Assembly: GCA_965202675.1 (NCBI GenBank)
Contig: OZ241842.1
Location: 323,188 to 387,187 of the forward strand
Length of the DNA: 64,000 bases
From: Candidatus Spongiisociaceae bacterium
Lineage (GTDB): Bacteria; Actinomycetota; Acidimicrobiia; Spongiisociales; Spongiisociaceae
Direction of reading: 5' to 3'
Shown: positions 28,176 through 35,225 of the stretch, piece after piece
Layout: every line of letters begins with the position of its first letter
Numbering within the stretch: position 1 is the first letter of the stretch
The notes under the pieces: model-generated
Database searches by the model: none
Told to the model about the DNA's origin: nothing
The model's input: only the letters and a program-made list of their open reading frames with translations
Program-made: the position numbers and the translations under genes

Positions 28176-29081
28176 TTACCGCAGGGCCCGGGGATGGGCC
28201 TCCACGTACACTTCGTGCAGGTGCCGGAGCGACATGCGCGTGTACACCTGCGTGGTGGAAACACTAGCGTGTCCGAGGATTTCCTGTACGGTGCGCAGGT
28301 CGGCGCCCCCCTCCACCATGTGGGTGGCGGCCGAATGGCGCAGGACATGGGGCGAGATGCGGGCGGCGGGGATGCCCGCCCGTTGCGCATGCTTGCGCAC
28401 GATTCCGAAGACCCCCTGGCGGGTCAGCCGCCCCCCCCTGGCGTTGAGGAACACCGCCCCCGGATCATCCCCCGGGCGGCGCAGCTCCAGCCGGTCCGGA
28501 AGGTAACCCTCGATGGCCTCCGCGGCGGGCCGGCCCAGCGGCACCATCCGCTGCTTCGACCCCTTGCCGGTGACCAGGGCGCTGCGGGTGTCCAGATCCA
28601 GCTCCGCCAGATCGAGGCCCACCAGCTCGCTCACCCGCACCCCCGTCCCGTACAGGGTCTCCAGCATGGCCCTGTCCCGCCTGCCCAGCACCGTGTCCGC
28701 GGGGGGCGCCTCCACCAGGCCGATCGCCTCGTGCACATCGAGCGCCTTGGGGAAACCCAGCCGGCTGCGGGGCGTCTCGGCGAACCGGGTGGGGTCCTCC
28801 TCCGCCTCCCCCTCCGCCACCAGAAACCGATGGAACCCCCGCACCGCCGCCAGCTTGCGGGCCACGGTGGAAACCTCCATGCCCCGCTCATGCAGCGAGG
28901 CCAGATACCCGTCCACCAGCTCCGGCGTGGGCTCCTCCCCCTCCAGAAACGCCAGATACCCCTCCAGGTCCCCCCGGTAGGCGGTAACCGTGTTGCGGCT
29001 CAGCCCCCTCTCCACCGCCAACGCAGACAGATACCCCTCCGTCTGGGGTTCAAGTGGATGGGGTTCGACCTTCTGCGTCAT
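28176..29081 (-). CDS. xerD: site-specific tyrosine recombinase XerD
   Basis: Catalytic R..HxxR..Y block (PHVLRHSAATHM, LGHASVSTTQVYT); chromosomal context next to pyrG as in other actinobacteria. Confidence 0.85.
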   Translation of the reverse strand: MTQKVEPHPLEPQTEGYLSALAVERGLSRNTVTAYRGDLEGYLAFLEGEEPTPELVDGYLASLHERGMEVSTVARKLAAVRGFHRFLVAEGEAEEDPTRFAETPRSRLGFPKALDVHEAIGLVEAPPADTVLGRRDRAMLETLYGTGVRVSELVGLDLAELDLDTRSALVTGKGSKQRMVPLGRPAAEAIEGYLPDRLELRRPGDDPGAVFLNARGGRLTRQGVFGIVRKHAQRAGIPAARISPHVLRHSAATHMVEGGADLRTVQEILGHASVSTTQVYTRMSLRHLHEVYVEAHPRALR

Positions 29082-29397
29082 GCAAGCCCCTATGCAGGTG
29101 ATTAATGCAGTCTCCCCATGTTACGGCCGTAAGGCCGTGATCAGTGGAACATTCTGCCGCGCTCATCGCCTGCCTCGACTCGAAGGCCACCGAGCGAATT
29201 GCGCTCTCATGTATTCCGGGGATACGAAGCTCTTCATCACGGATCAGCTGCTGGCAAGTCTCGACCCGTGTACACTGGACGAAGGGACAGAAGCGGTGTG
29301 CACATCCCCGCGTGGTCGGATGCTTCTCCGGATGTAACATTGCCGCTCGTTTGGGAACCCACTGGATGATTCAGCGGGGAGGAAGGATGAAGGAACG

Positions 29398-29634
29398 ATG
29401 ACTGTCGCTGACGTGTTTTACGACATCACCGAAACCGCCGAAGGCTGGGAAGTCGCCGCTGGCGGCCGGGGCGGCAACTGGAAACGGATGTACCCTACCG
29501 CTCATGCCGCGCAACAAGCCGTCCTCGCCGCCGAGGAAGAACAAACCGCCGCGGAAGGCCGTGACCGGACAGCAGTGATCGACTGGACGCCGGTCACCGC
29601 CGTCGGGAGGGCGGTCGTCGCGGCTATCACCTGA
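29398..29634 (+). CDS. small hypothetical protein (78 aa)
   Basis: Good RBS GGAGGAAGG upstream; lower-GC island. Confidence 0.4.
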   Translation: MTVADVFYDITETAEGWEVAAGGRGGNWKRMYPTAHAAQQAVLAAEEEQTAAEGRDRTAVIDWTPVTAVGRAVVAAIT

Positions 29635-29649
29635 AAGGAACCAAGAACG

Positions 29650-29877
29650 ATGACAAACCATCTGTCTTTCTTCGAGTACCTTGACCGGGCGGCCTGCGAC
29701 GAGCCGTACACCGACGAGGATTGGCGTCTTGCAACAGAGCGGGTGCGGGCAATCCGCGAAAGAGTGTTGGCCGATCCCAGGATCGCCGAACTCGAAGACC
29801 GTAAATATGCCGAGATTACCAGGCGAGTCCAAAAGCTCAAGGCGGTTCGCCGCGACGGCGGACGGCTCGAGTCATAG
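29650..29877 (+). CDS. small hypothetical protein (75 aa)
   Basis: RBS AAAGGAA upstream; 15-nt gap to previous gene. Confidence 0.4.
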   Translation: MTNHLSFFEYLDRAACDEPYTDEDWRLATERVRAIRERVLADPRIAELEDRKYAEITRRVQKLKAVRRDGGRLES

Positions 29878-29937
29878 ATGTTGGTTCGTCCCGAATCACC
29901 AATGAGCGGCGGAGCGGTTGTTTGTATTCGCTTACGA

Positions 29938-30876
29938 CTATCGACGGCCGCCCAATCGGGCGAGCGAGCGGTGAGGCCTGACAAAGAGGTTGTAATAGTG
30001 CCAATTAACATAAGGAATAGCAGGCGGATCATATCCGGCCTGCGGCATTCGCATATGAGATCCTATCAGCTCCATGACAGGTAACTGCGCCTCCCCTCCC
30101 CGCGTAATCATGTGCTGGCTAACGAGTATTCGATGATCTTGGTCCAGTCCTAGAGCTCCGCGGTCGAACAGCCGGTGATGGAACACACAAAGCGCCATTC
30201 CATTGGTGATGTGGTCGGGCCCGTGATATGAACGCATCTTTACGTGGGCGGCATCGATCGCCAATGGTCGGCCCTTGAGACTCCCATTGAATCCACAGAA
30301 CGAACATTGGTTCTCATAAGCCAGCAGAACAGTGCGCCTGAAGTCGGGATCTCTGGGAGCCGCGACTGTCGTGACAAGATGCCCCAGATTGACCTCTTCA
30401 AGAATTTCAGCATGGAGAGTGTCCGGGAACTCCATATCCAATAGGGTGTTGACCACCCTGGAACGCACTTGCGGGCTCTGCAAAGCCAGCTCGAAATCGG
30501 GGGCCAAATAGCCGGTGGCCTCTTGCCGCAGGAACGGTGTACTTTCCCGTACATTCTGCGGCATGGCGGCTATATCGTTGCCGTTGGTATCCTCTACCCT
30601 CCACAGATCGCGTTCGGTTCCGAGGTATACGAAGGGGTTGGCCACTCGAAGCACGGTGCCCAGGCGATGCTTGTCCATCAATTGTTTCAAGTCCTCCTCA
30701 GCATCTTGGAAGGAGATTCGGGTAGGCAATCTTGCGGCTTGTCGTCCGATGAGCCACAGCAACAACAACGGTTTGTACGGCGCGCGTCTGTCCCCGCCGG
30801 CAAATCGCCTTATCGATCTGACCTTGTCGGCCCAATGTCTGGCGCTCTCCGGATCTGTCGTTCTTATGCGCTGCAC
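29938..30876 (-). CDS. HNH endonuclease family protein (HNH_2-like C-terminus), candidate modification-dependent restriction enzyme
   Basis: CSFCG...AAHVKMRSYHGPDHITNGMALCVFHHRLFDRGALGLD HNH signature at C-terminus; ~200-aa uncharacterised N-terminal domain. Confidence 0.75.
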   Translation of the reverse strand: MQRIRTTDPESARHWADKVRSIRRFAGGDRRAPYKPLLLLWLIGRQAARLPTRISFQDAEEDLKQLMDKHRLGTVLRVANPFVYLGTERDLWRVEDTNGNDIAAMPQNVRESTPFLRQEATGYLAPDFELALQSPQVRSRVVNTLLDMEFPDTLHAEILEEVNLGHLVTTVAAPRDPDFRRTVLLAYENQCSFCGFNGSLKGRPLAIDAAHVKMRSYHGPDHITNGMALCVFHHRLFDRGALGLDQDHRILVSQHMITRGGEAQLPVMELIGSHMRMPQAGYDPPAIPYVNWHYYNLFVRPHRSLARLGGRR

Positions 30877-30928
30877 GTCGAGGGTAAATCTAGCTCATGC
30901 AGAAAAGGCCTGCTCTGCGGGATCGGGG

Positions 30929-32236
30929 TCAACGCCGCTCCTCTCCCTCCGTCCGCTCCTCGGACGCCTCCGCGTCCGCCGCCCAGATGATGAGGCGCAG
31001 CTCGCTGTCGTCGATCACGGTGTACTCGGGCCGCCGCCCCGACAGGGCGCGGCTCTCGTCGAGGATGATCGGCACCCCGTCCCCCCGCCGCTCCATCATG
31101 TAGGTACGGTTCAGGCGCTCGTTGTCGACGGGGCATCTGACCAGGAGGGAGGCGATCAGCTCGTTTCTGCTGTGCTGCCGATACTGCATGCCTTCCGTTG
31201 TCAGCGTGTTGGTGAGGCCGCCCGGAACGTACAGCTCGATCCGATCCTTGAACATATGCAGCCTGATCCGGGCACCCGCCATCGAATAATCACGGTGCGC
31301 CACCGCGTTCACGAGCGCCTCGAACACGGCGCGCTCGCTGTATTGCGGCCGCTCCGTCCGGGCCAGTTTCTTTGCAGCTCTGGTGAACATGTTCTTGCGG
31401 ACAAAGCCAAGAGCCTCCATAACCTGGGTGTCCAGAGGGCCGACAATGTCGCGGGCGTCTGGTTGATAGTTGATATCTGATCTCTCTCCGGTGTAACTGA
31501 CTGCTTGAATGTATGCATGAGGTATCCGGTCGCTCGGTGTTCGGGTACACATCAGAACCCCGGCTACTGTGATACCGGCATTGCCGCTTCTATCGTAAGC
31601 GATGATCCTCATGTTGCTCAGTGTTTCCTCGGTCATATCAATATTGTGCCGGAGATATTTACCGACCAAAACAGGGTCCAGCATATCCGGTGTGGTTCTA
31701 GGAACTATCAATTCATCAAATCTTATCATTCTATTTTGACTGTGTTCTTGAAATATCCTCGAAAGCAATTCTGGCCTCATTTTACGGTTGGAGTTTCCTG
31801 TTCTACGAAAGTAACCGTTTGGACTACTGTGTACAAACATACTGCGGGCGACATCAATATAGATTATTGGAACGGGGTTGCCCTCGAAATCAGGCAGTTT
31901 GACCTTGCGGATCAATACATCTAGCGGAGGATCCACAGAATCGCCGCATATTCCGCTTGCCCATTCTTCTACAGCCGCTAGGTGTTCGATAGGGATTCCC
32001 AGGACTTCATTATCTTTATCAGAGGCTCCCAGAACAACAGTCCCGCCTCTGCTGTTTGCCATGCCCGCCATGGTGTCTGCCAGGTCATTGCGCCTTGGGC
32101 CGACCACTTTGGAACCGCTCAAGAAAACTTGTTGAAGCTCCAGGTTCAAATCTTCACCGAGCCGTATACGGCTCGCCAAACTTCTGGTGTCTACCATGTT
32201 CCTGTACCTCGTTTTCTGCGCCCGGTGGCAAGCCAA
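30929..32236 (-). CDS. AlbA_2 (Schlafen-like) + HATPase_c_4 domain protein (COG2865-type putative DNA-binding ATPase/regulator)
   Basis: N-terminal GGTVVLG...DNEVLGI divergent-AAA/AlbA_2 block, C-terminal NAVAHRDY histidine-kinase-like ATPase motif; 435 aa. Confidence 0.65.
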   Translation of the reverse strand: MACHRAQKTRYRNMVDTRSLASRIRLGEDLNLELQQVFLSGSKVVGPRRNDLADTMAGMANSRGGTVVLGASDKDNEVLGIPIEHLAAVEEWASGICGDSVDPPLDVLIRKVKLPDFEGNPVPIIYIDVARSMFVHSSPNGYFRRTGNSNRKMRPELLSRIFQEHSQNRMIRFDELIVPRTTPDMLDPVLVGKYLRHNIDMTEETLSNMRIIAYDRSGNAGITVAGVLMCTRTPSDRIPHAYIQAVSYTGERSDINYQPDARDIVGPLDTQVMEALGFVRKNMFTRAAKKLARTERPQYSERAVFEALVNAVAHRDYSMAGARIRLHMFKDRIELYVPGGLTNTLTTEGMQYRQHSRNELIASLLVRCPVDNERLNRTYMMERRGDGVPIILDESRALSGRRPEYTVIDDSELRLIIWAADAEASEERTEGEERR

Positions 32237-32248
32237 CGCCGCTTGGGG

Positions 32249-34324
<2,076 letters not shown>

Positions 34325-34783
34325 CTAGTTGGTTTCGCGTAAGTGAAGGAAGTTAATCGCTGTGTTGTCGTCCTTGCCTTCTAGGTAAAGGTACAAGTCT
34401 ACAGTGAGGAGCGGTGTTTCCGGTTTGGCGGCCTCGAGAAGCGCCGCATCCGTCAACCCAAGCCGCTTGAACTCGCTGTTCTGTGAAGCCGTCCGACTTG
34501 CAATGACGATTTCTTCACTTCTTTGTATTAGTAGTTGAAGCTGTTCAAAGAGCGCAGATCTTTCAGGCTCTCTGTGCTGGGCTAGTAGATTTGATGCTTC
34601 TGTGAGGGTGTTCGGTGTTACATATACATGCTTGACAGGTTTCAATAGCTCGCGCAAAAGCCTGTAATCATCAGATGTATAACCGCCGAGCCTGCGATGT
34701 TTGTATATCAAACCAATATCTACATCACCTGCGACCAGCAGCGTCAGCAGGTTTGCATCTATAAAGTATCCGATAGGTGACAC
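34325..34783 (-). CDS. PIN-like domain protein
   Basis: N-terminal FIDANLL (Asp1), TEAS, LTDAALL acidic residues in PIN-like spacing; GTG start 4 nt after upstream gene stop; low GC. Confidence 0.5.
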   Translation of the reverse strand: MSPIGYFIDANLLTLLVAGDVDIGLIYKHRRLGGYTSDDYRLLRELLKPVKHVYVTPNTLTEASNLLAQHREPERSALFEQLQLLIQRSEEIVIASRTASQNSEFKRLGLTDAALLEAAKPETPLLTVDLYLYLEGKDDNTAINFLHLRETN

Positions 34784-34787
34784 TGGC

Positions 34788-35072
34788 TTAGTTAGGTGCA
34801 GGCAAGATTCGATCTTCGACCGATAAGATCTTACCTTCTTTATCGTCGATGCAAACTACTTTATAGGCGCGGCCTTCGGCTCTGGTCATTATTGGATGAC
34901 CGAGCGGACCATTTACCTGTTCCCACTCTCTATTGAAGCCGACAGTTATGAACCAATTATCCGAGTCATAATCAAGCTTGATCTCTTCGAGCCCGACAAA
35001 GTTTATGCCTTCTTCACCGAAGAGCTCGATGATGTGCTGCTTGGCTGCTCTTGCGGCTTCTTTGACATCCAC
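34788..35072 (-). CDS. hypothetical protein, upstream partner of PIN-like gene
   Basis: GTG start with AAGGAG RBS; 93 aa; translationally coupled to PIN-like gene. Confidence 0.4.
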   Translation of the reverse strand: MDVKEAARAAKQHIIELFGEEGINFVGLEEIKLDYDSDNWFITVGFNREWEQVNGPLGHPIMTRAEGRAYKVVCIDDKEGKILSVEDRILPAPN

Positions 35073-35225
35073 CGTCGGCTCCTTGTTTATTGGCTGCGGC
35101 CCTCTGCCGCAACTATGGTAACTGCCGAGGGCGGGCTCGGCAAGCGCGAAAATCGACCGCACCAGCACGTATGGAGGCGGCTTCCTTTCAACGATTCTGT
35201 GCCGCATGAGCTTACAGGGCGGGGG

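Follow-up and report, generated by a model that had tools for sequence, protein, structure and literature searches.

The gap between xerD and pyrG in the stretch of DNA analysed here (64,000 nt of contig OZ241842.1 from a Candidatus Spongiisociaceae bacterium, hereafter the window) is best explained, at a probability of roughly 0.8, as a mosaic of leftovers and stand-alone genes that form no joint system: a stand-alone nuclease gene joining a sulfur-binding domain (SBD) to an HNH domain, and a prokaryotic Schlafen gene without its usual partner, an ATPase of the TrlF family. The gap measures about 3.2 kb at a GC content of 0.45–0.64, against 0.70–0.78 on either side, and GC content at third codon positions (GC3) is 0.62–0.64 in its two main genes and 0.88–0.94 in xerD and pyrG. 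The two main genes lie on the minus strand, 52 nt apart, and two small open reading frames (ORFs), s75 and s78, lie on the plus strand (Table 1). A preliminary description of this DNA had reported the lower-GC insert, its ORFs and the spacing of the minus-strand pair, and both the GC profile and the coordinates agree with it; the domains that it had named in the two proteins (AlbA_2, HATPase_c_4 and HNH_2) all score above the Pfam gathering cutoffs.

The 312-aa protein encoded by the downstream gene is a full-length member of the known, already curated family of SBD-HNH restriction endonucleases for phosphorothioate (PT) DNA. It scores 209.4 bits (cutoff 180) against the NCBIfam model NF045808 (PT-DNA_restrict, “phosphorothioated DNA-binding restriction endonuclease”), its residues 14–298 aligning with positions 2–283 of the 284 in the profile, and it matches Pfam HNH_2 above the gathering cutoff (E 1e-7). 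The SBD was identified through NCBIfam, the PDB and precomputed annotations: among the matches listed, PF26340 (DNA-SBD_ScoMcrA) is precomputed in 120 of 120 homologs and PF13391 (HNH_2) in nearly all. In a phmmer search against the PDB, residues 7–179 match ScoMcrA (5ZMM, 5ZMO and 5ZMN) and SprMcrA (7CC9, 7CCD and 7CCJ) with E-values of 8e-6 to 8e-5, at about 23–24% identity to the solved SBDs. An AlphaFold2 model built with 34 homologs (mean predicted local distance difference test score 75.6, mostly 80–94 in the SBD region) places 7CCD, 7CC9, 7CCJ, 5ZMO and 8H0L at the top of a Foldseek search (probability 1.00, TM(target) 0.66–0.75); the SBD-DNA complexes of SprMcrA, ScoMcrA and Hga are the sole significant fold matches of the modelled SBD, and the fold of the HNH half is akin to that of the modification-dependent enzymes VcaM4I and TagI. 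The preliminary description had listed the N-terminal domain, some 200 aa long, as being of unknown type, had speculated that it might read modified DNA or bind sulfur, like the readers of SBD/SRA-HNH type IV enzymes, and had suggested Foldseek as a check. That check retrieved SBD structures, the sulfur-binding option is borne out by NF045808 and by PDB matches in both sequence and fold, and the domain does have a Pfam family, PF26340.

The sulfur pocket has been mapped to H116, R117 (Lys in most homologs), Y164 (variable and context-specific), P165 (critical) and A168 in ScoMcrA (PMC6224610), and to Y31, Q32, Y78, P79 and A82 in SprMcrA (PMC7470945). Alignment to 5ZMM and 7CCJ gives Y34, K35, N80, P81 and Y84 as the pocket of the window protein. 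Throughout the clade (alignment A1), Y34, K35 and P81 do not vary, and the pattern Y-K-x-P-Y is retained in nearly all homologs of at least 43% identity, two of which deviate at the last position. Position 80 varies within the clade (N, F, Y, D, H or K), matching what the literature leads one to expect of a context-reading residue; the asparagine of the window protein stands where ScoMcrA (Y164) and SprMcrA (Y78) have tyrosine. Y84 is nearly invariant in the clade and corresponds to alanine in the solved structures (ScoMcrA A168, SprMcrA A82). The nuclease residues C191, C194, H211, N225, C230 and H234 are invariant in alignment A1 and in every full-length homolog examined. The best species-level relatives are 63–71% identical, and pairwise ratios of nonsynonymous to synonymous substitution rates (dN/dS) against orthologs are 0.035–0.18.

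With SprMcrA/EcoWI-type enzymes (NF045808; 7CC9, 7CCD, 7CCJ) the window protein shares a two-domain build of about 300 aa, SBD plus HNH without an SRA domain, as well as the SBD fold, the pocket proline, an aromatic residue at the H116/Y31 position, a basic residue or its equivalent, the CCCH zinc finger and the H-N-H catalytic residues. Its H-N-H triad is a true one, whereas H-N-R has been reported for SprMcrA (PMC7461809). With ScoMcrA (SCO4631; 5ZMM/5ZMN/5ZMO) it shares a homologous SBD (phmmer E 8e-6), the HNH domain and the principle of sulfur recognition, but ScoMcrA is 561 aa long and has a head domain and an SRA domain for 5-methylcytosine and 5-hydroxymethylcytosine, both missing from the window protein.

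Two-domain SBD-HNH enzymes (SprMcrA, EcoWI and four more) cut PT-DNA near the modified site and restrict dnd+ plasmids (PMC7461809); for the window enzyme, we infer both activity and sequence context. Like ScoMcrA, SprMcrA and EcoWI, it would act as a stand-alone modification-dependent (type IV or IIM-like) restriction endonuclease. The SBD would accommodate the Rp sulfur of a PT linkage in a hydrophobic pocket with P81 as the floor, K35 as the source of positive charge and Y34, N80 and Y84 as the walls, and the C-terminal HNH/zinc-finger nuclease would cut DNA nearby. The probable target would be incoming phage or plasmid DNA with PT marks. PT-marked DNA likely circulates in the population, which would give a reader nuclease its target, because alleles of the PT writer SspABCD fill the same slot in sibling strains.

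Two further observations concern the surroundings of this family; L-numbers here and below are the labels of homologous loci fetched for comparison. Two SBD-HNH paralogs, 31–52% identical to the window protein, lie within a few kb of each other in L009, L015, L017, L024 and L033, and such paired paralogs might broaden the range of recognised PT contexts. An uncharacterised protein of about 148 aa adjoins SBD-HNH, at a median position just upstream, in 12 loci (L002, L003, L013, L014, L017, L019, L020, L032, L034–L036 and L050); its representative at L050:6351–6794 has no Pfam or PADLOC match.

The preliminary description had put forward the Schlafen-type gene (here also called the AlbA_2 gene) and the HNH gene as an unnamed two-gene defence pairing. 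In such a system the HNH protein could, for example, be the effector, under a GHKL-Schlafen protein acting as its sensor or regulator. The two genes share a strand, are closely spaced and have no terminator that we could find between them, their order is repeated in L083 and L084, and both protein families are defence-associated (PMC13056530). We nonetheless regard a dedicated two-gene system as extremely unlikely. Seen from the HNH side, an AlbA_2 homolog (tblastn E <= 1e-5) occurs within 10 kb in 0 of 79 loci (one genome per species, flanks up to 10 kb where the contig allowed); seen from the AlbA_2 side, 0 of 42 metagenome loci have an SBD-HNH or ssp gene nearby. Beyond the window, the pair is found in L083 and L084 only, which belong to the same PANK22-1 metagenome series and are close strain variants (flanking proteins 91–99% identical to those of the window, pyrG 91–97% at the amino acid level in the two loci, xerD 99% in L083). 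Closer HNH relatives, 70–79% identical, occupy the same pyrG-xerD slot without AlbA_2 in L081, L085 and L001, and in L082 the allele group to which the AlbA_2 gene of the window belongs adjoins sspABCD and not HNH. Between the window and L083, synonymous divergence (dS) is 0.041 for HNH and 0.53 for AlbA_2, and this 13-fold gap implies a recombination breakpoint between the two genes. The typical contexts differ as well: AlbA_2 genes adjoin the TrlF ATPase, a deeply conserved partner of their own, whereas SBD-HNH genes are usually met in Ssp islands or in the pyrG-xerD slot.

AlbA_2 plus SBD-HNH as one system is thus rejected on neighbourhood surveys from both sides. Such a survey had been set beforehand as the test able to refute the pairing, and it finds the two genes not consistently linked; the pairing is largely refuted. 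On these comparisons, the Schlafen-like and HNH genes appear to be adjacent since both landed in the same recombination hotspot, rather than as a new two-gene system. Of the minus-strand operon in the preliminary description, the co-orientation and the 52-nt spacing stand. A scan for promoters and terminators of the island genes gave no signal separating or delimiting genes above shuffled expectation, so the operon is a putative one, with co-transcription possible.

The upstream gene encodes a prokaryotic Schlafen-GHKL protein (pSlfn-HisKinase class, COG2865). SLFN_AlbA_2 (PF04326) matches with 39.1 bits (cutoff 25.3, E 1e-9) and HATPase_c_4 (PF13749) with 66.5 bits (cutoff 26, E 2e-18), and its structural model resembles 3LMM, human SLFN5/11/13/14 (in their nuclease domains) and GHKL kinases (PDK/HK853). 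Schlafen-HisKinase is the commonest prokaryotic Schlafen architecture, accounting for 34% of 5,930 proteins (PMC13056530); in the literature that we found, no function has been shown for it. The family is large (more than 4,900 matches) and unusually conserved, with proteins labelled Truepera and Thermoanaerobaculia, among others, still at about 62–65% identity. The most likely start codon is the ATG at 32197, giving 422 aa, rather than the TTG at 32236: homologs, of which more than 100 were compared, span 403–430 aa (mostly 408–422) and can be aligned from that methionine; a purine-rich GAGG/AGGAA stretch directly precedes the ATG. The Schlafen nuclease motif has been defined as Ex4(E/D)xK (PMC13056530), from which the window protein departs: E15 and E20 are kept, and position 22 is Q. 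This position is K in 114 of the 120 homologs examined and Q only in the window protein and P0121, a 95% relative, and the K22Q change may weaken the nuclease. Purifying selection continues to act on the orphaned gene, with dN/dS values of 0.16–0.20 (0.18–0.20 when the three copies without TrlF are compared with one another).

Unbiased clustering of neighbours reveals the conserved partner of AlbA_2 to be a protein of about 910 aa encoded immediately upstream (tblastn gap 9–55 nt), present in 20 of the 27 AlbA_2 loci with enough upstream sequence to be informative. Its copy at L083:2122–4848 scores 557 bits against NF045780 (TrlF_fam_ATP; cutoff 350) and 2e-119 against PADLOC Ppl, and consists of an N-terminal PHP domain and an SMC/ABC-type ATPase. 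In RefSeq, a “TrlF family AAA-like ATPase” adjoins a Schlafen-GHKL homolog of 48% identity on a Burkholderia thailandensis plasmid, and the TrlF/Schlafen-GHKL adjacency recurs at 27% identity on a Klebsiella plasmid, inside a type I restriction-modification (R-M) operon. TrlF (a Ppl-like PHP-AAA ATPase) followed by Schlafen-GHKL is seen as a conserved module at L083:2122–6113, in L086–L122, and in L128 (NZ_CP068711) and L129 (NZ_AP022145).

The TrlF/Ppl-like ATPase and Schlafen-GHKL together look like a widespread and as yet undescribed defence module of two genes; only the Schlafen half is left in the window. We found no paper describing the pair, and the study of bacterial Schlafen proteins (PMC13056530) does not mention PHP, Ppl or ATPase partners. 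PADLOC and NCBIfam represent Ppl as a single-protein model, whereas TrlF pairs with Schlafen-GHKL in the AlbA_2 loci. Any likeness to Ppl or TrlF-family PHP-AAA ATPases thus lies in the partner gene of AlbA_2 homologs and not in the window, where tblastn with the TrlF protein of L083 found no match in the 64 kb. The window protein has the N-terminal Schlafen/AlbA_2 nuclease-like domain and the GHKL domain in common with pSlfn-HisKinase/COG2865/3LMM proteins, but has Q for the motif lysine and lacks the TrlF ATPase seen with most of its close homologs. More generally, prokaryotic Schlafen-GHKL proteins might require the ATPase partner in functional assays.

The absence of TrlF from the window can be traced to a single indel junction. 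The end of pyrG and the start of AlbA_2 are 51 nt apart, and blastn aligns window 29646–32202 with L083 7397–4840 and window 32210–32396 with L083 185–1; the intervening 4.65-kb segment of L083 begins about 40 nt past the end of pyrG and stops 5 nt short of the AlbA_2 start codon. L082 and L084 have the same TrlF-less junction as the window. Because the TrlF-Schlafen module is so widely conserved, the segment was most likely deleted in a common ancestor of the window, L082 and L084, and the Schlafen-GHKL gene would be the survivor of a TrlF module that has lost its ATPase and three other genes. Loss of the TrlF partner is also what could be expected of a decaying island in which both main genes are non-functional relics, as could the K22Q change in the Schlafen motif, the truncation of s75, the lack of conservation of s78 and the lack of a clear Shine-Dalgarno sequence before the GTG start of the HNH gene. 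We consider such decay very unlikely: neither ORF is interrupted or shortened, the other residues that are invariant in the family are all kept, and the dN/dS values of the two genes are similar to those of pyrG (0.12–0.20).

Another alternative, which we judge unlikely, is that SBD-HNH is an accessory arm of an SspABCD island, reading the host’s own PT marks as SspE does or restrained by them, and dependent on a writer elsewhere in the genome. The co-location behind this idea is considerable: Ssp core genes lie within the fetched flanks of 17 of the 79 SBD-HNH loci, and SspABCD within 10 kb in 14 of the 25 loci with an HNH protein that shares 50% identity or more with that of the window. Most often sspABCD comes first, next a DndB-family protein, sometimes joined by an SNF2 helicase, and last SBD-HNH, convergent at the island edge; in L004, from a close relative, HNH and sspABCD share the pyrG slot. 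An Aravind-lab survey proposes that HNH proteins of the SBD type serve Dnd loci as alternative restriction components, and it places the three-domain SBD-SRA-HNH form inside Dnd loci of 698 taxa (PMC10853773). Pocket and catalytic residues of SBD-HNH are intact with or without adjacent Ssp.

Against an accessory role stands the absence of any ssp, dnd, DndB-like or SNF2 gene from the window (tblastn with SspA-D, DndB-like and SNF2 queries, no match across 64 kb), and copies without an adjacent writer (window, L080, L081, L083, L084 and L085) are under strong purifying selection. In L002, L010 and L083, decayed ssp fragments lie beside an intact HNH gene; the reader therefore outlives the writer. 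L020 has a canonical SspE next to sspD (PADLOC 1e-234); the islands are therefore equipped with an effector already, to which SBD-HNH is an addition. Characterised members of the family cut PT-DNA alone (PMC7461809), and the SBD of SprMcrA does not bind the Ssp-type CpsCA mark (PMC7470945). If the window clade resembles SprMcrA in this, blindness to CpsCA would offer a simple way for reader and Ssp writer to coexist. Residue 80 does not track Ssp linkage, N, F and Y each occurring with and without Ssp.

The frequent proximity to SspABCD sets the window clade apart from SprMcrA/EcoWI-type enzymes, since dnd clusters lie near SBD-HNH genes in less than 3.6% of cases (PMC7461809); we found no paper linking two-domain SBD-HNH genes with Ssp. 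The SspABCD-SspE system, the commonest neighbour of the SBD-HNH clade of the window, fills the pyrG-xerD slot in L082 and L004 and likewise handles PT-DNA, but the window holds no Ssp gene, and SspE has a DUF262/GmrSD-type architecture and not an SBD-HNH one. SBD-HNH was also considered as the missing effector of the Ssp islands, a candidacy weakened by the canonical SspE of L020 and by the DndB-like, SNF2 and GIY-YIG genes that other islands have of their own. In the Ssp islands L006, L012, L014–L017 and L021–L023 we noted a DndB-family protein (about 420–510 aa), in many of them with an SNF2 helicase (about 520 aa), and some of these Acidimicrobiia islands have in addition a protein of about 920–1080 aa with a sigma70_r4-type helix-turn-helix (HTH) domain and a small GIY-YIG protein. 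These DndB, SNF2, HTH and GIY-YIG genes may be a non-canonical Ssp effector set in place of SspE.

Several points weigh against the view of the slot as a mosaic with a stand-alone reader. The presence of a PT writer beside more than half of the close homologs fits poorly with a simple role of restricting all PT-DNA, and the writer search covers 64 kb, so that an ssp or dnd cluster elsewhere in the genome is possible. The pocket differs from those of characterised SBDs (N80 for Tyr, Y84 for Ala), and for that reason we infer the PT sequence context, and even PT dependence itself. The direction of the TrlF indel, deletion as opposed to insertion, is read from the conserved module. Finally, with the two main genes co-oriented at close spacing, in an order shared by L083 and L084 and with no detectable terminator, co-transcription and some functional interplay are possible.

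The pyrG-xerD gap is itself an ordinary mosaic hotspot for recombination of defence genes in this high-GC Acidimicrobiia lineage; most of the related genomes are metagenome-assembled genomes (MAGs) of sponge symbionts. The clearest exchange is with L082, where blastn aligns window 30919–34323 with 11246–7905 (91.5%) and window 28534–29060 with 21236–20710 (95.6%). Between the AlbA_2 stop and the xerD start, flanks that are 91–96% identical enclose a different cassette in L082, with SspA (PADLOC 1e-125), SspB (5e-99), SspC (0) and SspD (5e-108); after these come a ParB_N protein of 275 aa, a protein of 234 aa and a metallo-beta-lactamase/beta-CASP-like protein of 341 aa. L004 (a Candidatus Spongiisociaceae MAG; pyrG DNA 90.6% identical) has pyrG, HNH, an s75-like ORF and sspABCD in the slot, L081 a type II R-M pair and L085 a YibE_F membrane protein. 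L080 and L084 show partial duplications there. A search for att-like or terminal repeats bounding the island gave short, chance-level repeats only.

Beside these exchanges we record some observations on the same slot. The partial tandem duplications (L080:4–933 and L084:7456–7738) cover the AlbA_2 3' end and the HNH gene, and short copies of the AlbA_2-HNH junction lie at L083:1865–2015; these features point to repeated recombination in the hotspot or possibly to the assembly of a strain mixture. The ParB_N/234/341-aa set of L082 (17972–20531) recurs at L075:7201–9759, directly upstream of an SBD-HNH homolog in the gammaproteobacterial Porisulfidus, and is a possible further module associated with PT. 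Those SBD-HNH genes that lie in the slot (window, L001, L004, L005, L008, L010, L081 and L085) have GC3 values of 0.57–0.75 against 0.76–0.94 in their flanks, in genomes whose pyrG proteins are only 79–88% identical, and the copies inside Ssp islands of Aldehydirespirator genomes have a GC content equal to the local one. This pattern suggests repeated import of alleles into the slot rather than long vertical residence.

Taken across sibling strains, the hotspot holds a reader only (window), a writer only (L082) or both (L004). A broader reading joins these observations: the SBD-HNH clade as a regular edge component of SspABCD islands in sponge-associated Acidimicrobiia, and a new arm of Ssp-type defence if the linkage is functional; the slot as a natural writer/reader polymorphism; and TrlF plus Schlafen-GHKL as an undescribed module. 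We offer this combination tentatively, as possible and somewhat doubtful. Were the linkage functional, the SBD-HNH reader could be tuned to foreign (Dnd-type) PT contexts and so complement host CpsCA marking, or could alternatively be a self-PT-dependent suicide effector, and the hotspot would present a natural writer/reader polymorphism for a modification of the DNA backbone. For the window itself little changes, its nuclease belonging to a curated family and the proposed new pairing being unsupported; the more interesting leads, the SBD-HNH/SspABCD co-location and the TrlF-Schlafen module, lie outside its content. The co-location contradicts the expectation of Dnd-centred surveys that PT readers avoid writers and makes a tractable case of coexistence, and naturally occurring SBDs whose pocket differs (N80/Y84) could add to the PT-specific readers available for EcoWI-seq-type mapping and for separation of oligonucleotide stereoisomers.

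Table 1. Features of the xerD-pyrG gap and its flanks, in window positions.
Feature	Position	Strand	Details
xerD	28176–29081	-	ORF; Pfam Phage_int_SAM_1 and Phage_integrase in orthologous loci; hotspot flank
Exchangeable cassette (HNH, s75, s78)	29061–30918		9.4-kb cassette of sspABCD and ParB_N/234/341-aa genes in L082; blastn
s78	29398–29634	+	small ORF of doubtful status; no family match
s75	29650–29877	+	truncated remnant (N-terminal part) of an XRE/HTH_37-type regulator, without its HTH domain
SBD-HNH phosphorothioate-DNA-binding restriction endonuclease	29938–30876	-	312 aa; GTG start; NF045808
HNH nuclease motif with CCCH zinc finger	30145–30306	-	C191, C194, H211, N225, C230, H234; Pfam HNH_2 aa 191–244
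Sulfur-binding domain (winged-helix type)	30340–30858	-	about aa 7–179; pocket Y34, K35, N80, P81, Y84; phmmer and Foldseek
Prokaryotic Schlafen (AlbA_2) + GHKL ATPase (HATPase_c_4)	30929–32197	-	422 aa; without the usual TrlF partner; motif E15-x4-E20-x-Q22
Indel junction	32202–32210		site of the 4.65-kb segment of L083 (HTH_37 regulator, ORFs of 135 and 131 aa, TrlF-family ATPase); blastn
pyrG (CTP synthase)	32249–33922	-	ORF; Pfam CTP_synth_N and GATase in orthologous loci; hotspot flank

The two small plus-strand ORFs, described as two genes in the preliminary description, both exist but are not equivalent, one being a truncated copy of a regulator and the other lying at a position that is not conserved; neither has a match in Pfam, NCBIfam, PADLOC or PHROGs. 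Over 56 aa, s75 is 79% identical to residues 26–81 of a 147-aa HTH_37 protein, L083:297–740(-), whose HTH lies at about aa 69–134, and it stops short of that domain. It adjoins HNH in L080, L083, L084 and L004, with dN/dS of 0.33–0.41. At the position of s78, L080 and L083 have ORFs that share 49% and 29% identity with it, with dN/dS of 0.46–0.95, and s78 is probably not a conserved gene. A toxin-antitoxin pair of s78 and s75 was considered and rejected: s75 proved to be the N-terminal piece of an HTH_37 regulator, and the gene that precedes this regulator shows no relationship to s78.

A second islet of low GC content (0.46–0.55) lies between pyrG and recN, at window 34325–35207. It holds two minus-strand ORFs, of 152 aa (34325–34783) and 139 aa (34788–35207), for which Pfam, NCBIfam, PADLOC and PHROGs give no significant match, and part of its edge (window 34321–34498) is kept in L082 and L084.

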